Shown here: piece after piece, positions 2,159-41,835 of the stretch
Position numbering within the stretch: position 1 is the stretch's first letter
Layout: each line of letters opens with the position of its first letter
Sequence record: OZ470597.1
DNA from: a phage
Length of the DNA: 52,133 bases
Direction: 5' to 3' (one strand)
Translations under genes and position numbers: made by a program
The notes under the pieces: generated by a model
Told to the model about the DNA's origin: nothing
What the model saw: the letters and a program-made list of their open reading frames with translations, nothing else
Database searches by the model: none

Positions 2159-3439
2159 ATGAGTAAATCACGAATCGTTAAGGCTGATGGCTATAACGAG
2201 ATCTTTAAAGGCGAGAATTGCAAATCGCGAGTAGAGCAACCATTCTACATGCAATCAATGCCATACAAGACACTTGCTGACTTTTACGAAAAAGACGGCT
2301 TGGCAAAAAGGATTATTGACGTAGTACCAGAGGAAATGGTTTCCCCTGGCTTTACTGTTGACGGCGTGGCAGACGAGGCAGCATTCCGTTCTTTGTGGGA
2401 TGAGAAGCGATTGAATGCAAAAATCATTGATGCGCTTTGCTGGTCGCGTTTGTTTGGCGGATCTGCAATCATTGCTCTTGTTCAGGATGGGCGAGCGCTC
2501 AAATCACCTGTAAAGCATGGAGCTATTCTGGAAGATGTGCGCGTTTACGATCGCTATCAGATTCGCGTTGAAGCGCGCGAAACTAATCCCCGCAAAGTTC
2601 GCTATGGTGAGCCAGTGCTTTACACTGTAACACCAGGCGGAGATTTGCCGGAATACCAGGTACACTACACGCGCGTTTGCATTATCGACGGTGAGCGGAT
2701 ACCTAACGCAAAGCGACGCAGCAATGATGGATGGGGTGAGTCAGTTCTTAACAAGCGACTTGTTGAGGCTATTGTTGATTATAACTATTGTGAAACATTA
2801 GCCACGCAATTATTGCGCAGGAAACAACAGGCGGTATGGAAGGCTAAAGGACTCGCTGACTTGTGCGATGATGAAGAAGGTGTTAGCGCGGCACGTCTGA
2901 GGCTTGCGCAGGTTGACGATGAGGGCGGCGTAGGCAAGGCCATTGGTATTGATGCTGAGGATGAGGAATATGATGTTCTTAACTCTGACATTAGCGGCGT
3001 TGATTCTTTTCTGGAAAAGAAAATGGATCGCATCGTTTCCCTTTCAGGTATTCATGAAATCATCCTGAAAAATAAAAACGTTGGCGGCGTTAGCGCAAGC
3101 CAAAACACGGCGCTTGAAACATTCTATAAACTTATTGAGCGAAAACGCGTTGAGGATTACAAGCCAATCCTTGAATTTCTATTGCCGTTCATCATTAGTG
3201 AGCAGGAGTGGAGCATTGAGTTTTCACCTTTGAGCGTACCTAGCGATAAAGATCAGGCTGAAATTCTGAATAAGAATATCGACTCAATCAGCAAGGCTAT
3301 TGATGGTCAGTTCCTTGATGTTGAAGAAGCGCGAGACACGTTGCGAGCAATCGCCCCAAGCGTTAAACTAAAGGACACTAATAAAATCAAGCTGCCGGAG
3401 CCAGTGGAGCCGGAGCCAGGCACACAGGGGAATGAGTAA
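2159..3439 (+). CDS. portal protein
   Basis: 426 aa ORF directly after terminase with GGAGG RBS; position and size typical of portal. Confidence 0.65.
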   Translation: MSKSRIVKADGYNEIFKGENCKSRVEQPFYMQSMPYKTLADFYEKDGLAKRIIDVVPEEMVSPGFTVDGVADEAAFRSLWDEKRLNAKIIDALCWSRLFGGSAIIALVQDGRALKSPVKHGAILEDVRVYDRYQIRVEARETNPRKVRYGEPVLYTVTPGGDLPEYQVHYTRVCIIDGERIPNAKRRSNDGWGESVLNKRLVEAIVDYNYCETLATQLLRRKQQAVWKAKGLADLCDDEEGVSAARLRLAQVDDEGGVGKAIGIDAEDEEYDVLNSDISGVDSFLEKKMDRIVSLSGIHEIILKNKNVGGVSASQNTALETFYKLIERKRVEDYKPILEFLLPFIISEQEWSIEFSPLSVPSDKDQAEILNKNIDSISKAIDGQFLDVEEARDTLRAIAPSVKLKDTNKIKLPEPVEPEPGTQGNE

Positions 3440-4206: not shown

Positions 4207-5319
4207 ATGAAGGCAAAACAAAGATTTGATAGCGTCCAGGTTAAGGCGCATTTTGATGATAATGGATTTTTAGTGGATCGCCCAATTGTGGCGCGAATTG
4301 GTTTGCAGGAGTACCGCACACCGTATGGAATCAGACGAGAGTTCCGACCAGCGTCAGAGGTGTTTAAGGCTGATTCGCTTGCTACGTTCGCAGGCAAGCC
4401 GATCACTATCGGTCACGTCACAGTGACGCCAGATAATGCGGATCAGGTTGTTGTTGGTTCATGCGCTGGCGCTGGTGTTCCTAATGGGATTGGCGTTGAA
4501 GTTCCGTTAAGCATTTACTCAAAGCGAGCAATTGAGAGCGCAAAAAAGAAAGACACGGCGGAAATTTCAGTTGGTTACACATCGGTTGATATTGACAAGC
4601 CAGGCTGGGGTAATAATAAAACTGGTGATTACTTATTTGATGAAGACCTTAAAGAAGACTGGAAGCCTGATTCTCCTGATTGGGTCAAATTTGACGCCAT
4701 TCAGACGAATATCCGTGTTAATCACATTGCGCTTGTCTTTCGTGGTCGTGCTGGCATTGCCAAATTAAATCTTGATAGTGAACAAGATTTTCCGTATAGT
4801 GACGAGGTTCTAAATGACAAAGGAGATGAGGAAATGACAGTAAAAATTAAACTTGATGGCGCGGTAGAATTTGATGTTCCAAAGGCCGTTGCTGATCATA
4901 TTGAGGCGTTAAAGGCAGATGCAAAAGCTGCAACCGAAAAAGCTGATGGCCTTGAGGCCGAGCGCGACGCCCTGAAAACTAAAGTCGATGGCATTCCGGC
5001 GCAGATTGCAGAAGCTGTTAAGAAGGCAAAGACTGACGCAGAAGAACATGCCAAGCTGGTTGCAGATGCAACTGAAATTGGCATCAAGTGTGACGGCTTG
5101 GACGCTAAAGCGATCAAGGTTGCTTACGTCAAAGAAGTCACTGGCGCTGATATTTCAGAAAAAGCCGATGCATATATTGAAACAGCTTTTGACCTTGCGA
5201 AGCAGTCTGATAAAATGGCGGCGCAGCGTAAATCTGTTAAGGGCGATTCTTTCGAATCTGGCAAGAGTGAAAAAACCGACTCCCTTGATCCTACTGCGCG
5301 TTTGAAAAAACTTAAATAA
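4207..5319 (+). CDS. capsid scaffolding protein (DUF2213-like)
   Basis: 370 aa between MuF-like and capsid genes; C-terminal half Ala/Lys/Glu-rich coiled-coil (KADAKAATEKADGLEAERDALKTKVDG); AAGGAG RBS. Confidence 0.5.
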   Translation: MKAKQRFDSVQVKAHFDDNGFLVDRPIVARIGLQEYRTPYGIRREFRPASEVFKADSLATFAGKPITIGHVTVTPDNADQVVVGSCAGAGVPNGIGVEVPLSIYSKRAIESAKKKDTAEISVGYTSVDIDKPGWGNNKTGDYLFDEDLKEDWKPDSPDWVKFDAIQTNIRVNHIALVFRGRAGIAKLNLDSEQDFPYSDEVLNDKGDEEMTVKIKLDGAVEFDVPKAVADHIEALKADAKAATEKADGLEAERDALKTKVDGIPAQIAEAVKKAKTDAEEHAKLVADATEIGIKCDGLDAKAIKVAYVKEVTGADISEKADAYIETAFDLAKQSDKMAAQRKSVKGDSFESGKSEKTDSLDPTARLKKLK

Positions 5320-36055: not shown

Positions 36056-36247
36056 TTCAATTCTCTTTACAGTAACCAACAAAACGCCGTCATCATCACA
36101 CAAATTATGCTCTGATATGTTAAACGCTCGCATGTCAGAATGAATTAGCGTTAACATTGCGTGCATGAAGTCTTCATGTGAGATTGAACTTACGGCGCAG
36201 AACTTCAATATTTTGTCTATTAGCATTTGACGCAAACAATTCTTCAT
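36053..36247 (-). CDS. hypothetical protein
   Basis: 64 aa ORF with GGAG RBS; overlaps 3' end of 36174..36572 by 74 nt, so uncertain. Confidence 0.25.
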   Translation of the reverse strand: MKNCLRQMLIDKILKFCAVSSISHEDFMHAMLTLIHSDMRAFNISEHNLCDDDGVLLVTVKRIE

Positions 36248-38177: not shown

Positions 38178-38221
38178 AATAATACCGCACCAATGCTACC
38201 CGCATTTAACAAAAAATGCTA
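38178..38221 (-). promoter_or_regulatory. conserved-element promoter for 36569..38152 gene
   Basis: minus-strand ATAGCATTTTTTGTTAAAT (38204-38221) and -10 TATTAT (38178-38183). Confidence 0.5.
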
Positions 38222-38440
38222 TTTTATCCGCTCTATGCTAACTAGGATTTTTTCTGGTTCCCTTGCGCTATGGCAATGCGCGGTTACGGAATCAACAAAA
38301 TCAAAATAAAGTGATTTGTGGTAAGAAAGACCAATCAGCCATCCAACCATCGTTTTCTTTATTGGCCTGACTATATCGCCAGGCTTGAAGGTTTTTGTTG
38401 CTGAATGAGTCACCTTATAGCGATATTCAGTCTTGATCAT
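38219..38440 (-). CDS. hypothetical protein
   Basis: start tentatively at ATG 38440 just downstream of the HNH stop. Confidence 0.3.
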   Translation of the reverse strand: MIKTEYRYKVTHSATKTFKPGDIVRPIKKTMVGWLIGLSYHKSLYFDFVDSVTAHCHSAREPEKILVSIERIK

Positions 38441-38447
38441 AATGCTT

Positions 38448-38945
38448 CTATTTCCCGTGGTTTTCATGGAATCCATAATCAATCAACAATCTATCTCTTT
38501 CTGATATAGCCGACTCCAAGCATGTGTGCCACCCGCCATAAATCAATCTACCATCAACCCTCACATTAACCTTGTATTTACCCCTATTTTCGTACCAGAT
38601 AATACCTATATGACCGCTTGTATTGTTAGACCGCATGGATAAATTTCGTCCGTTTATCGACCTTGTAACCAGCCTCAAGTTTTCTATCCTGTTATCAGTT
38701 CTGTCATGGTTTAAGTGATCAACCTCCATGTTTGGCGGAATATCTCCGTTATGCATAATCCAAACAACCCTGTGAGCATAAATCTGCACACCTTCTATAG
38801 TTAGCTTTACATACCCTTTGCTGTTTACGGTTCCAGCCTCAAGACTACGTTTTCTACCCTTTCTCCATTCCTTCCAGTAAAGAATCCCGTCGTCGTATCT
38901 TAGTTGACTTAGAAGTATTTCGCTTGAAATTTTGCAGTTGCACAT
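38448..38945 (-). CDS. HNH homing endonuclease
   Basis: 165 aa; MEVDHLNHDRTDNRIENLRL HNH motif, C-terminal DYGFHENHGK; GGAGG RBS; 5' end overlaps upstream gene by 37 nt. Confidence 0.8.
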   Translation of the reverse strand: MCNCKISSEILLSQLRYDDGILYWKEWRKGRKRSLEAGTVNSKGYVKLTIEGVQIYAHRVVWIMHNGDIPPNMEVDHLNHDRTDNRIENLRLVTRSINGRNLSMRSNNTSGHIGIIWYENRGKYKVNVRVDGRLIYGGWHTCLESAISERDRLLIDYGFHENHGK

Positions 38946-39292
38946 TCGAAACCCTCCTCGCAGCGATATAGAGTAAAACGATCACCTTGTTCGTCGTAAA
39001 CATACCCAGCAACAGCGCCAAGAACTCTACCACTTTCCACTTGATATCTCTTTCCTTTCTTGAAAGTTTTCTTAACGCTAAGAGAATGGTCAACGCAAGT
39101 GCAAAGTATTGTTTTTGTCTTGATATGACGATAGTCAGACTCAACAGCGTTTTGCCACTTGCTACCCTTTGTAATGCTCTTTACCTGGAATTGTTCCAAC
39201 TCGATCACATCATCGCTACCAGCAATTTTTTCGTATACAGCTTTATAACGACCGTTCATCAAAACGTTGGTTTTATTGCAGATAACTTTCAT
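38909..39292 (-). CDS. hypothetical protein
   Basis: 127 aa, AAGGAG RBS, conserved promoter element upstream. Confidence 0.5.
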   Translation of the reverse strand: MKVICNKTNVLMNGRYKAVYEKIAGSDDVIELEQFQVKSITKGSKWQNAVESDYRHIKTKTILCTCVDHSLSVKKTFKKGKRYQVESGRVLGAVAGYVYDEQGDRFTLYRCEEGFECATAKFQAKYF

Positions 39293-39323
39293 CGTTTATT
39301 TCTCCTTTCGTTTCGGTGAAGTG

Positions 39324-39367
39324 ATTATGCCAGGCTTTTACACCTGGCTTTTAACAAAAAGTGCTAT
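39324..39367 (-). promoter_or_regulatory. conserved-element promoter for 38909..39292 gene
   Basis: minus-strand ATAGCACTTTTTGTTAAAAG (39348-39367), spacer hairpin GCCAGGTGTAAAAGCCTGGC, -10 CATAAT (39324-39329). Confidence 0.55.
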
Positions 39368-40050
39368 TTTGCGTTAGCTTCAAAGACGGCGCGAGCAAAA
39401 CCGCGCGGTGTGAGGGAGCGGAGTTGCTTTGTTCTGGCAGACTTACCGCCTAAAAACTTCCAACCCCAAAAGAACATTACGCCCTCATCATTGCATAACG
39501 GCTTGCGTTCCGGTTCGGTAAATCCGTTGCCGCACCAGATAGCCGTCCTTTTTGTGTAGCCATCCTTTAGCGGCATCTTGGGGTGAAAAGATCCATCGGA
39601 TTCGTCCAGGTAGTTACCAAAATCGCGCGGATTGAAATAAAAATCAGGCTTGCGCCATAGCGTTGATAGTCGGCCTACAGGATTCTCAGCCATCCAGGGA
39701 ACACCGAAATGATTCCCGACAGTTTCAACCATGATTGCATTTTTGAGCGCGACCTGAACATCATCATCGCTTCGCGCGTGCTTGATTCCTGATTGGGCAA
39801 ACATGGTGCAGTCTGGAAATCCAAATACAATATCTGGTTTTGGAATATCCATCTTACTGATTCTTTCAATGAAATTTTCATCAATCCACATATTCACATA
39901 ATGCAGATTTTCATGCTTCATCTTGATGAAATATTCGCCGTGATTTCCTTCATCAGCGTTAAAGCAATAGCATTGATAGCCAGCCTTAGCATATTCAAGC
40001 AGCATGATTCCAGATCCATCAAACATTGAGTAAGCAACTTTATTTCCCAT
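39364..40050 (-). CDS. C5-cytosine methyltransferase-like protein (divergent, compact)
   Basis: FDGSG (motif I-like), GFPDC (motif IV PC-like), ENP (ENV-like) at spacing typical of C5-MTases; start uncertain (ORF extends to 40110, overlapping the HNH gene). Confidence 0.4.
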   Translation of the reverse strand: MGNKVAYSMFDGSGIMLLEYAKAGYQCYCFNADEGNHGEYFIKMKHENLHYVNMWIDENFIERISKMDIPKPDIVFGFPDCTMFAQSGIKHARSDDDVQVALKNAIMVETVGNHFGVPWMAENPVGRLSTLWRKPDFYFNPRDFGNYLDESDGSFHPKMPLKDGYTKRTAIWCGNGFTEPERKPLCNDEGVMFFWGWKFLGGKSARTKQLRSLTPRGFARAVFEANAK

Positions 40051-40567
40051 GATTTTTATGATACCCCAATTCATTCTCGGCTTTACGTTTTGCGGCAACA
40101 GCATCTCCAAAACTGGAGAAACAACCTATATAAATCCTACATCCTCGCTTTCCGCTTCCAACCCTTACAACCCATTTTCCATGTTTATTTTTATGCACAC
40201 CTGGTATGCCACTTGTATTGTTTTTCTGCTTTGATGTGTTTCGCATATTTCCTTTGTGATCTTTTAATTCAAAGTTTATTGCTCTGTTATCAGTAGTAAT
40301 GTGATTTACGTGATCAACCTCCATTCCTTCCGGTATAGGCCCATAGTGCATTTCATAGCATATTCTATGAACTTTCAGATTATAACGCTTTCCATTTACA
40401 GTAAGTGCGGTTTCTAAATATCGACCACCACTACCCAAAGAGCCAACCTCATTACCAGCATTGCAAGCATTCCATTGTTTAACTCTTGATTGGTGAATAT
40501 CTTTTCTTTCTTTCCAGAACAGCTTTCCAGTTTCTGGATTGTATGTAAAGTAATCGTGCCAATTCAT
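40040..40567 (-). CDS. HNH homing endonuclease (paralog)
   Basis: 175 aa; MEVDHVNHITTDNRAINFEL HNH motif, C-terminal ELGYHKNHGK; GAGGTGA RBS. Confidence 0.8.
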   Translation of the reverse strand: MNWHDYFTYNPETGKLFWKERKDIHQSRVKQWNACNAGNEVGSLGSGGRYLETALTVNGKRYNLKVHRICYEMHYGPIPEGMEVDHVNHITTDNRAINFELKDHKGNMRNTSKQKNNTSGIPGVHKNKHGKWVVRVGSGKRGCRIYIGCFSSFGDAVAAKRKAENELGYHKNHGK

Positions 40568-40575
40568 TCATCACC

Positions 40576-40800
40576 TCAAAACGGAAAGCATCGCGCACAG
40601 TTAGGATCAAAATTGCAGCCGCAATCATTGACAATCATCGTTGGATCTGCAAATGCAGCGCCGCATTCATGATCCATATCCATATCACCTAACGCATCAT
40701 CAAGCGTCCTGATCTTATATGCAACTTCAAGCGCTGCCTCTTTATTTAATCCGGCATCTTCAGCCATTTGCAGGCGCTCAAAAAATCCGTCCTGACTCAT
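40576..40800 (-). CDS. hypothetical Cys-rich protein
   Basis: start at ATG 40800 with AAGGAG RBS; C-terminal Cys/His cluster (HECG...CGCNFDPNCARC). Confidence 0.45.
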   Translation of the reverse strand: MSQDGFFERLQMAEDAGLNKEAALEVAYKIRTLDDALGDMDMDHECGAAFADPTMIVNDCGCNFDPNCARCFPF

Positions 40801-40910
40801 TTCATAAACTCCTTGATAGCAACCAGAACAATAGCAAGACCAGCAGTGACAACCCAAAGACCCATAAGGCCAATCATCACTCCCAATAAAATATCAAGAA
40901 ATTTCATCAT
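40797..40910 (-). CDS. hypothetical small membrane peptide
   Basis: 37 aa hydrophobic ORF (MMKFLDILLGVMIGLMGLWVVTAGLAIVLVAIKEFMK), AAGGTGA RBS, stop overlaps next start (ATGA). Confidence 0.3.
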   Translation of the reverse strand: MMKFLDILLGVMIGLMGLWVVTAGLAIVLVAIKEFMK

Positions 40911-40957
40911 TATTATCACCTTTATTTAAAGGGAGGCGAAAACCTCCCATTGATTAA

Positions 40958-41185
40958 TCAGACAGCCTTCCAGCTTTCAATAAACATGCTGTTTTCTTCC
41001 AGCAGTTTAATCAATTCTTCGCGTGTATATTTTCGGATTTTACTACCAGGATGCGAGCCAACAACAAACACACCTTTACCGCTTGTGATTGTTAACTGGT
41101 TGATTCCACAAGATTTATCCATTTTCACAGCGACGCGGTGATGTGCATCAATAGTGTGCATGATGTTAGTGACTTTAGCTTTCAT
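40958..41185 (-). CDS. hypothetical protein
   Basis: start at ATG 41185 with GAGG RBS. Confidence 0.45.
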   Translation of the reverse strand: MKAKVTNIMHTIDAHHRVAVKMDKSCGINQLTITSGKGVFVVGSHPGSKIRKYTREELIKLLEENSMFIESWKAV

Positions 41186-41359
41186 TATGCAATCCTCATT
41201 ATATTTGGTGTGGTAACTATACCAGGTTTGAGAAATATTGTTTATCAATTATTGCTATCAGTTGAAATAGCTATGGCGCTTTGCTCGCTTTCCGCCTCCG
41301 CCATAATGATCATTTGCAACAGCTACCATCCAGGAATTATGGAATATTATTAGCTTCAT

Positions 41360-41641
41360 CTAATTAATGCCAACAACGTTAAAACTTACAGCTTTTGTTG
41401 CGCTAAACACATACGCTTCAACAGCCTCACCAAATACACGAATTTTTCCATAGCCGTACTGCGCATTCATATTGCGCCAAACCGTCCTGTTAGAGCAGAA
41501 CGCGCTACCAGTCTTGATGAGATTATCCATCTCTTTTCTTATGTCATGATAATCAAGCCAGAATCTATAAGCGCGTTGTTTAATGAGTTTCGCCTTGATT
41601 GTTTCGGCTGAGTTTTTAAAATCGCTGTTTTTGTAGGCCAT
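41360..41641 (-). CDS. hypothetical protein
   Basis: 93 aa, GGAGG RBS, start overlaps upstream stop (TAATG). Confidence 0.5.
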   Translation of the reverse strand: MAYKNSDFKNSAETIKAKLIKQRAYRFWLDYHDIRKEMDNLIKTGSAFCSNRTVWRNMNAQYGYGKIRVFGEAVEAYVFSATKAVSFNVVGIN

Positions 41642-41835
41642 TACACAACCTCCATAAAAGTATTGAATCCACGCAGTTTGAAAGCGTTGCCATGTTTAAC
41701 AACGTTCCATGTCAGGCCGGAGTGATACGCAACCATATCATCAAGATCAATGGTGATGATAGCGCCTTTCTTAAAGATTCCTTTCTCGTGAGTGGTGTCA
41801 CGCTGTGCAACTTTAACATCAACCTGTGTTTCCAT
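41641..41835 (-). CDS. hypothetical protein
   Basis: 64 aa; conserved promoter element and conserved leader upstream. Confidence 0.5.
   Translation of the reverse strand: METQVDVKVAQRDTTHEKGIFKKGAIITIDLDDMVAYHSGLTWNVVKHGNAFKLRGFNTFMEVV

Follow-up and report, generated by a model that had tools for sequence, protein, structure and literature searches.

Known homing endonucleases and related systems

Several described systems resemble a pair of HNH nuclease genes, here called HNH1 and HNH2, that sit among the early genes of a T1-like coliphage, a Hanrivervirus-like member of the Drexlerviridae whose sequence (record OZ470597.1, 52,133 nucleotides) is referred to below as the window. The first of them is I-HmuI (PDB 1u3e), the sole PDB sequence match for HNH1, which is likewise phage-encoded and whose D-H...N...N residues align without gaps. 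Nevertheless, its sequence identity to the window proteins is only about 21%, and it resides in a group I intron and ends in a helix-turn-helix, whereas the window genes are free-standing and their products have an AP2-like C-terminus. The HNH-AP2 homing endonucleases (Magnani et al. [quoted passage not shown]

The Seg and Mob homing endonuclease genes (HEGs) of T-even phages, such as SegG and MobE, are similar to the window genes in their intergenic insertion, presence/absence polymorphism, co-conversion of flanking markers, and expression from the host operon. They belong, however, to other nuclease families (Seg enzymes are GIY-YIG) and to another phage family, and for Seg/Mob enzymes cleavage and marker exclusion are established by experiment, whereas for the window HEGs cleavage is predicted. 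"HEG islands" and nuclease genes at the boundaries of genetic exchange were described by Barth, Dunham & Seed 2023 (PMC10448857), and the window shares with these islands two HEGs flanking a short gene block and abrupt shifts of identity that coincide with HEG positions. Also comparable are EndY/EndZ of phage Tls and "EndY" of JK16, SP-126 and mar001J1, which are members of the same HNH gene family, occupy the site of HNH1 (site 1) in T1-like phages and show the same 37-nt overlap with the upstream gene; they are nevertheless distinct lineages, about 70% identical in nucleotide sequence along part of the gene and encoding 173 aa compared with 165 aa for HNH1, and EndY/EndZ are annotation names only. 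The copies in relatives are already annotated as homing endonucleases, and the locus represents a known kind of system, not a new one. A literature search for cleavage or inheritance work on HNH1, HNH2, EndY/EndZ or close homologues returned genome descriptions only.

Organization of the locus

The two genes and their neighbors are arranged as follows.

38219..38440, minus strand: 73-aa gene 3' of HNH1, with its true start at ATG 38440 (phrog_12725, junction comparison)
38448..38945, minus strand: HNH1, free-standing HNH_3 homing endonuclease gene, 165 aa (ORF with ATG start, Pfam HNH_3, phrog_99)
38909..39292, minus strand: 127-aa gene of unknown function (ORF, match to phrog_2684, protein alignment)
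38952..38959, minus strand: Shine-Dalgarno sequence for HNH1, GAGGAGGG, inside the 127-aa coding sequence (read from the sequence)
39364..40050, minus strand: C5-cytosine-methyltransferase-like gene, B allele, 228 aa from its likely start ATG 40050 (phrog_757, E 4.9e-79)
40040..40567, minus strand: HNH2, free-standing homing endonuclease gene with HNH_3 and AP2-like domains, 175 aa (ORF with ATG start, Pfam HNH_3, structure model)
40571..40577, minus strand: Shine-Dalgarno sequence GAGGTGA, used by HNH2 in the window and by the methyltransferase gene where the site is empty
40576..40800, minus strand: 74-aa gene 5' of HNH2 (phrog_9323), with its stop 8 nt ahead of the HNH2 ATG

The original prediction had placed two paralogous HNH homing endonuclease genes, each overlapping a neighbor, at these coordinates, and both ORFs are present there, on the minus strand, together with the motif strings quoted for them (MEVDHLNHDRTDNR in HNH1 and MEVDHVNHITTDNR in HNH2). 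A tblastn search of the window returned no third HNH_3 gene. The HGK tail proposed as common to both is real inasmuch as both proteins end in NHGK, but it is partly coincidental, since the closest HNH1 homologues continue ...HGKEKSHDQD.

The overlap of HNH1 with the 127-aa gene, also part of that prediction, spans 37 nt in a different frame and is annotated in the same way in BEK7, BEK12A and JK16; the HNH1 ATG (38945) is preceded by a GAGGAGG Shine-Dalgarno sequence. An apparent overlap of HNH1 with a downstream 87-aa ORF was rejected as an artefact, as this gene begins at ATG 38440, 7 nt past the HNH1 stop. For HNH2 and the methyltransferase-like gene, an overlap survives but the 71 nt first called are mostly an artefact of choosing the longest ORF, from TTG 40110. 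Judging by the homologous B allele of BEK7, which lacks HNH2 (MKQKIAYSMFDG), the methyltransferase-like gene is likely to start at ATG 40050 (MGNKVAYSMFDG), and the overlap is probably 11 nt; at the junction compared with BEK7, the start codon and first 5 codons of this gene lie inside the 3' end of HNH2. The alignment of the site-2 junction pairs TGAGGTGATGAAATG(TAT) of the empty allele with TGAGGTGATGAATG(AAT) of the window, and in empty site-1 alleles the GTG start of the 73-aa gene overlaps the stop of a 128-aa gene (GTGA). The methyltransferase-like protein matches motifs I-IV of M.HaeIII weakly and scores 13.8 bits against Pfam PF00145, below the threshold of 22.

Each HNH gene forms an ORF of its own, complete with start and stop codon, outside any intron or intein, and an Rfam scan around them found no group I/II intron or other RNA at E up to 0.1. 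In a scan for promoters and terminators, hits were not enriched relative to shuffled sequence, and neither HNH1 nor HNH2 had a promoter to itself.

Nuclease family and fold

HNH1 and HNH2 score 79.2 bits (E 1.7e-22) and 54.4 bits (E 9.4e-15), respectively, against Pfam HNH_3 (PF13392), both exceeding the gathering cutoff of 24.8 bits, and give full-length matches to phrog_99, "HNH endonuclease" (E 5.8e-59 and 2.9e-51). Residues D76/H77/N89/N98 of HNH1, putatively catalytic, correspond to D74/H75/N87/N96 of I-HmuI in an ungapped alignment, and the putative catalytic residues of HNH2 are D85/H86...N98...N107, where D85 and N107 do not vary among 62 homologues and H86 and N98 hardly do. The roles assigned to the matched I-HmuI residues are those of its published structure.

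The AlphaFold2 model of HNH2 (pLDDT 89.4) contains the elements of a beta-beta-alpha metal fold (E82-86, E99-103, H104-109), and the best PDB match of its N-terminal ~107 residues is I-HmuI 1u3e (Foldseek E 5.6e-5, probability 1.00), with a further match to I-PpoI (Foldseek probability 0.99). The C-terminal part of the model forms a three-stranded sheet plus a helix (E124-126, E132-136, E145-150, H153-167) and resembles the AP2 domains of TEM1 (7et5) and AtERF1 (1gcc), with a Foldseek probability of 1.00 and target-normalised TM-scores of 0.42-0.59, while hhalign against an AtERF1 sequence gave a probability of 83.8%. Because the Pfam AP2 profile (PF00847) matched neither HNH1 nor HNH2 even at E up to 10, the assignment rests on structure and on homologues, about 20 of which, full-length, carry PF00847; in many homologues this domain occurs together with PF13392. 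The two proteins are I-HmuI-like nuclease modules followed by a C-terminal AP2-like DNA-binding domain. To our knowledge, biochemical characterisation of the large family of HNH_3-AP2 enzymes is almost nil, and JakobBernoulli and PeterMerian, two relatives that differ in their occupancy as described below, are ready material for mapping the target sites of such enzymes.

Occupied and empty sites

The genes were originally read as selfish insertions, and a comparison with relatives in search of insertion-free alleles returned many of them: site 1 is uninterrupted in 37 phage records and site 2, that of HNH2, in 137, and herni, JakobBernoulli and aaroes carry clean empty alleles. At an identity of at least 90%, HNH2 was found in only 13 of 326 related records and HNH1 in only 6. 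In JakobBernoulli (BASEL Bas07) neither site is occupied, and HNH2 is present in PeterMerian (Bas05). The backbone of the window occurs in all four occupancy states, namely with neither gene, with HNH1 only, with HNH2 only, and with both, as in the window. Junction comparison places both insertions exactly at gene boundaries. The selfish-insertion reading is strongly supported by the abundance of empty alleles, by the insertion at boundaries, and by the fact that each HNH gene resembles its copies in distantly related phages much more closely than its flanks do.

The HNH2 copies of the 13 phage records are 90-98% identical and come from 3-4 genera, with 96-98% identity between HNH2 and the Warwickvirus and Tlsvirus copies. 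BEK7-group phages, A16a and A15a hold HNH1 copies of 92-96% identity at site 1, which is occupied by three different HNH lineages among relatives. The term paralogous is misleading: HNH1 and HNH2 are members of a single family (35% identical over 166 columns, E 1e-22), but as each gene has its own close copies elsewhere and the two assort independently on the same backbone, they were acquired separately and are not duplicates made within a genome. The exact HNH2 sequence is present in 8 contigs of public assemblies, where the exact HNH1 sequence is not on record; a second genome with the exact pair was not found, and none of the HNH2 contigs listed carries HNH1 at site 1.

Exchanged blocks and methyltransferase alleles

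The sequence that accompanies each gene forms a block, and a conserved segment separates the two.

38441..39120, minus strand: HNH1 cassette, made up of HNH1 and the 127-aa gene's re-coded 3' half (the block differing from HNH-free relatives)
39121..39363, minus strand: conserved hinge, made up of the 127-aa gene's 5' half and a 71-nt intergenic region with a promoter-like motif
about 39380..40575, minus strand: HNH2 cassette, HNH2 plus the whole B-allele methyltransferase-like gene (high identity in other genera)

Compared with herni, JakobBernoulli and aaroes, identity is 67-68% in 38946-39120, and it is 96-97% to the left of 38440 and 98-100% in 39121-39363, the hinge keeping the latter value in Hanrivervirus relatives with or without an HNH gene. 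At the protein level, the N-terminal half of the 127-aa product is identical to that of HNH-free relatives and the C-terminal half has diverged. The allele at 38909-39120 was found, at an identity of at least 90%, in 9 records, all 9 of which have an HNH gene at site 1.

The HNH2 cassette is 93-98% identical to Poky, PeterMerian, BEK12A and EC167, with both flanks at 74-80%, a contrast seen with phages of Warwickvirus and Tlsvirus; its right edge is constant at about 40570-40580 and its left edge ranges from 39289 to 39420. Wherever a methyltransferase gene is present, HNH2 is invariably tied to the B allele, while Tunavirus S2_02 has HNH2 without this gene and GS71 has it with a truncated one. 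Conversely, about 23 records have the B allele but no HNH2, so the allele on its own does not argue for homing. The entire B-allele gene would have been dragged along with HNH2 because the A and B alleles are apparently too diverged for a crossover within the gene.

By genome comparison, then, two fixed sites, insertion at gene boundaries, independent assortment, and transfer across genera with a flanking block are demonstrated at the level of sequence. The locus offers a compact, well-resolved instance from nature of mosaicism generated in T1-like phages by free-standing homing endonucleases, with two fixed sites, four occupancy states on one backbone and sharply bounded blocks, and 38441-39120 and about 39380-40575 should be left out of the phylogeny and taxonomy of these phages. 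A transposable insertion sequence was rejected as the source of the blocks, as the cassette ends have no terminal inverted repeats or target-site duplication; a repeat search at the cassettes turned up only the homology between HNH1 and HNH2.

Proposed homing and alternative explanations

With good confidence, HNH1 and HNH2 can be regarded as free-standing I-HmuI-like HNH_3 HEGs with an AP2-like domain, acquired independently by a Hanrivervirus-like T1-type phage. Each gene brought a re-coded piece of the adjoining gene, and as an instance of phage homing endonucleases the locus is clear but unremarkable. When a carrier infects the same cell as a relative lacking HNH genes, each enzyme would nick or cut that relative's DNA near the empty site, and repair on the HEG-carrying template would copy the HEG and adjacent donor sequence into the recipient; as I-HmuI-type enzymes nick one strand only, the repair pathway is uncertain. 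For their expression both genes rely on signals of the host operon: HNH1 is preceded by the strong Shine-Dalgarno sequence inside the upstream gene, and HNH2 takes over the ribosome-binding site of the methyltransferase gene, the latter probably restarting at the ATG within the last codons of HNH2.

The gene between the two HNH genes had been suggested as their homing target. In outline this is plausible; however, there are two intervening genes, and the pattern of divergence suggests a separate target for each enzyme. For HNH1 the candidate target in empty alleles is the 128-aa gene, either in its 3' half or where it meets the 73-aa gene, and the re-coded 3' half moving with HNH1 would make the carrier immune. 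The target of HNH2 may extend across the start of the methyltransferase-like gene, a region disrupted by the insertion.

A different account would treat the HNH genes as passengers or inactive relics, perhaps persisting as DNA-binding proteins, and would ascribe the mosaic blocks to ordinary homologous recombination among T1-like phages infecting the same cell. The region is indeed mosaic in general, with identity varying also at 40800-41700, where there is no HNH gene, and phages with the B methyltransferase allele but no HNH2 are in circulation. In A16a, HNH1 is interrupted by two in-frame stop codons, in a record marked UNVERIFIED, which implies that at least some copies are decaying. Nevertheless, dN/dS values of 0.14-0.19 for HNH1 and 0.02-0.14 for HNH2 indicate purifying selection on the proteins, and the catalytic residues are intact and (nearly) invariant. 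Moreover, the 96-98% identity of HNH2 across three genera, within blocks whose edges coincide with the start of the gene itself, argues for recent, repeated, HEG-centred transfer, and the three HNH lineages at site 1 represent the turnover typical of active HEGs, which together make the passenger account improbable.

Somewhat less probable still is that the nucleases mainly serve the phage, by excluding competitors, by attacking host or satellite DNA, or as a packaging accessory as in HK97-type phages. HEG-driven marker exclusion is itself a competitive benefit, according to the work on SegG and related enzymes as cited in PMC10448857. Packaging roles are known for HNH proteins in some siphoviruses. 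However, most close relatives are viable isolates without either gene, which leaves no core function for the pair, and the domains are arranged as in sequence-specific homing enzymes. An HNH of the terminase-associated HK97 gp74 type was rejected, since the genes are missing from most relatives and their neighbors are a helicase, the methyltransferase-like gene and small early genes, with no terminase among them.

That HNH2 and the methyltransferase-like gene move as a restriction-modification-like addiction pair is very improbable, for although the 11-nt overlap links their translation and the two move between genera as one block of 93-98% identity, the linkage required of a Type II pair is not obligatory (S2_02, GS71, and the genomes in which the B allele is frequent without HNH2), each phage of the group has some allele of the methyltransferase-like gene whether or not an HNH gene is present, and the fold, I-HmuI plus AP2, is that of no known restriction enzyme.

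Independent homing of the two HEGs could have a further dimension, which we consider possible but doubtful: the cassettes may form a cooperative "HEG island", in which each re-coded neighbor (the C-terminal half of the 127-aa protein, and the methyltransferase allele with its new start) doubles as self-immunity, and homing may drive the replacement of methyltransferase alleles across Hanrivervirus, Warwickvirus and Tlsvirus. If so, the DNA-methylation specificity and the sensitivity to host restriction of these phages could change. The BASEL paper describes PeterMerian and FritzSarasin as restriction-resistant, with no simple pattern seen by its authors; a tie between this resistance of PeterMerian and the B allele or HNH2 was dropped, the resistant FritzSarasin being absent among the B-allele carriers listed. 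The published islands (PMC10448857) bracket essential genes, whereas the 127-aa and methyltransferase-like genes of the window appear dispensable, and both are truncated or deleted in several relatives.

Two HNH genes of one family

HNH1 and HNH2 lie in a co-directional gene run that comprises a DUF3987 helicase gene, the 73-aa gene (38219-38440), the 127-aa gene (38909-39292), the methyltransferase-like gene (39364-40050) and the 74-aa gene (40576-40800).

38448-38945, minus strand: HNH1, called ORF of 165 aa
40040-40567, minus strand: HNH2, called ORF of 175 aa

Both ORFs, as originally predicted, are real HNH genes, each matching Pfam HNH_3 well over threshold and phrog_99 'HNH endonuclease' over its full length. 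Their description as paralogous is misleading: they belong to one family (35% identity, E 1e-22), but they were acquired separately and are not duplicates arisen in the window genome. No further HNH_3 gene is found in the window by tblastn. The JakobBernoulli homologue (bas07_0059) of a 93-aa ORF (41360-41641, minus strand) is annotated 'putative homing endonuclease'; Pfam gives this ORF no endonuclease support, its top match being TIR_2 (E 0.17).

Both proteins combine an I-HmuI-like HNH nuclease with a C-terminal AP2-like DNA-binding domain, as indicated by motif alignment, model matches, domain co-occurrence in homologues and profile comparison. In a gap-free alignment of the HNH motif, D76, H77, N89 and N98 of HNH1 correspond to D74, H75, N87 and N96 of I-HmuI, and across 62 aligned homologues D85 and N107 of HNH2 are invariant and H86 and N98 nearly so. 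The top PDB match of the HNH2 AlphaFold2 model (mean pLDDT 89.4) is I-HmuI, over 107 N-terminal residues (E 5.6e-5), and the C-terminal sheet-plus-helix resembles the plant AP2 domains 7et5 and 1gcc (probability 1.0). Pfam calls no AP2 domain in HNH1 or HNH2; PF00847 and PF13392 occur together in about twenty full-length homologues, and hhalign against the AtERF1 AP2 sequence gives 83.8% probability. HNH nuclease plus AP2 is a layout already known among homing endonucleases (PMC10448857). The window HNH1 is slightly truncated at its C-terminus relative to the site-1 HNH proteins of BEK7, JK16 and BEK12A, which continue for 7 residues past this end (EKSHDQD or EKPYDQD) and overlap the start of the downstream gene; where the window has a TAG stop (38448-38450), the BEK7 locus (3339-3359) has GAG.

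Empty alleles and insertion points

The 6.3-kb neighbourhood is matched by 326 phage records, none with the exact window arrangement, and the nearest relatives are Drexlerviridae of the Tempevirinae, genus Hanrivervirus (herni, aaroes, JakobBernoulli and BEK7; 92-97% identity). The comparison with HNH-lacking relatives that the original prediction proposed defines the insertion points at both sites, since herni, JakobBernoulli and aaroes carry neither gene. In their empty site 1, the 73-aa gene has a GTG start that overlaps the stop of a 128-aa gene (AAGTGATC), and window homology restarts exactly at that start codon, which in the window is ATG 38440. The site-2 junction is TGAGGTGATGAA-ATG(methyltransferase) in the empty allele and TGAGGTGATGA-ATG(HNH2) in the window, which indicates that HNH2 has taken the ribosome-binding site and start position of the methyltransferase gene. 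BEK7 has the same methyltransferase allele as the window (the B allele) without HNH2, and because homology with it restarts 3' of HNH2 at GCTTACTCAATG, the likely methyltransferase start in the window (ATG 40050, MGNKV...) comes from the final codons of HNH2. The predicted overlaps with neighbouring genes stand for HNH1, whose ATG, preceded by GAGGAGG, lies 37 nt inside the 127-aa gene, an overlap kept in BEK7, BEK12A and JK16; for HNH2 the overlap is probably only 11 nt, the longer TTG-initiated methyltransferase ORF being unlikely to be real.

Clean empty alleles are common, in agreement with the predicted selfish insertion: 101-nt probes with the empty junction at their midpoint show site 1 to be uninterrupted in 37 records and site 2 in 137, and where only half-probes match, annotated records carry HNH, EndY or homing-endonuclease genes. 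Copies at >=90% identity occur in 13 records for HNH2 and in 6 for HNH1.

BEK7 (locus 625-1109) has an additional HNH gene adjoining a YdbL-like gene, at a site empty in the window (~36200-36223), and in Fulano1 (locus 1-876) the HNH genes gp49 and gp51 flank the YdbL-like gene, again at a site empty in the window; the early region thus has at least three or four recurrent landing sites for homing endonuclease genes (HEGs). About 20 MG0656xx records ('Campylobacter phage A16a, A123, A121 ...') are 89-97% identical to the window region, which is that of an E. coli T1-like phage; they are labelled Campylobacter jejuni phages yet classified as Drexlerviridae, all are UNVERIFIED, and their host label looks doubtful.

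Cassettes of discordant history

Identity of the window to other genomes by segment (Warwickvirus: Poky, PeterMerian, BEK12A and EC167)
HNH-free Hanrivervirus, up to 38440: 96-97%
HNH-free Hanrivervirus, 38946-39120 (3' half of the 127-aa gene): 67-68%
HNH-free Hanrivervirus, 39121-39363: 98-100%
HNH-free Hanrivervirus, methyltransferase-like gene: about 78%, only half alignable
HNH-free Hanrivervirus, from 40568: 90-94%
Warwickvirus, left flank: 79-80%
Warwickvirus, methyltransferase-like gene: 93-97%
Warwickvirus, HNH2: 96-98%
Warwickvirus, right flank: 74%

The Warwickvirus block has a constant right edge at the HNH2 start, and its left edge ranges from 39289 to about 39420. GS71 (Tlsvirus) is 95-99% identical over 39121-41200, except for a deletion in the methyltransferase gene, and only 74% identical to the left of this block. 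The Hanrivervirus backbone occurs in all four occupancy states: herni has neither gene, BEK7 and A16a have HNH1 alone, a Logan assembly from SRR32868946 has HNH2 alone, and the window has both. Nine records share the window-type 3' half of the 127-aa gene at >=90% identity, and every one has an HNH gene at site 1: HNH1, a 173-aa variant resembling EndY (A123, A118) or, in Fulano1, a hybrid. HNH2 is always accompanied by the B allele wherever a methyltransferase gene is present; Tunavirus S2_02 has HNH2 and wholly lacks that gene, and about 23 records have the B allele without HNH2.

HNH1 and HNH2 are best interpreted as free-standing HEGs, because fixed sites with clean empty alleles are sporadically occupied, because HEG and adjoining DNA block move between diverged genomes, and because different HNH lineages replace one another at one site. 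A less probable reading, in which the HNH genes are passive or inactive and recombination is of the ordinary kind, fits poorly with the intact active sites, the HEG-centred block edges and the purifying selection on both genes (dN/dS 0.02-0.19). A phage-beneficial core function is unlikely, both genes being absent from most relatives. S2_02 and GS71, together with the many genomes that have the B allele but not HNH2, contradict the idea that HNH2 and the methyltransferase-like gene form a restriction-modification-like pair. Neither an intron around the two genes nor terminal inverted repeats or a target duplication at the cassettes is found. The closest copy of HNH1 (96% nucleotide identity), in A16a (locus 4501-4998), has two in-frame stop codons, which may reflect a decaying HEG or, the record being UNVERIFIED, a sequencing error.

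As free-standing HEGs, HNH1 and HNH2 would, in a mixed infection, nick or cut the HEG-less allele near the empty site, and repair would then copy the HEG out of the carrier genome. Enzymes of the I-HmuI type are nickases, so that the initiating lesion may be a nick instead of a double-strand break. Because it always occurs with a site-1 HNH gene, the diverged 3' half of the 127-aa gene offers itself as the obvious candidate immune version of the HNH1 target. For HNH2, the right edge fixed at its start and the left edge variable beyond the methyltransferase gene suggest a break near the methyltransferase start; the event would be resolved only where homology restarts, because the B allele and the HNH-free A allele of herni and JakobBernoulli are too unlike for internal recombination. 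HNH2 most likely has its natural recipients among genomes that, like BEK7, carry the B allele and an empty site.

In Warwickvirus phages whose site 1 is occupied by an EndY-like HNH gene, namely BEK12A (locus 2526-2753) and JK16 (locus 2801-3028), the 127-aa homologue has only 75 aa and lacks the N-terminal half. The break coincides with the window cassette edge (about 39120), a hint that the 127-aa product is a two-module protein.

Relation to known systems

The known systems that come closest are HNH enzymes of the I-HmuI type, HEGs with the HNH-AP2 layout, the free-standing Seg and Mob genes of T-even phages, and, from Barth et al. (PMC10448857), both the 'HEG islands' and the recombination boundaries marked by nuclease genes. 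HNH-type HEGs are already known in such phages, where the literature records them as variable genes, and copies of HNH1 and HNH2 in BEK7, Poky, GS71 and others already carry HNH or homing-endonuclease annotations; the BASEL authors describe homing-endonuclease infestation, and the gene conversion that comes with it, as a general difficulty in aligning phage genomes. Specific here are the pairing of HNH1 with HNH2, found in no other searched record, the precise cassette boundaries, and the re-coding by each HEG of part of its neighbour gene.

The methyltransferase-like gene and the adjoining intergenic region

The 228-aa methyltransferase-like product is short and, by its matches, only weakly C5-methyltransferase-like (PF00145 at 13.8 bits against a cutoff of 22; M.HaeIII match confined to motifs I-IV). 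The gene appears dispensable, because GS71 has lost about 260 nt from within it, A123 keeps a 60-aa chimeric remnant and S2_02 lacks it. It is separated from the 127-aa gene by a conserved region.

39293-39363, minus strand: intergenic region of 71 nt, 98-100% conserved

This region contains a motif, CACTTTTTGTTAAAA...GGCATAAT, and a hairpin, GCCAGG-TGTAAAAG-CCTGGC, with a CCWGG (Dcm-type) site as each of its two arms. It probably acts as a promoter or operator of the phage, and a generic promoter scan makes no call on it. The motif also turns up between other genes in relatives, with extra short matches in BEK12A, EC167 and JK16, and in S2_02 it immediately follows HNH2.
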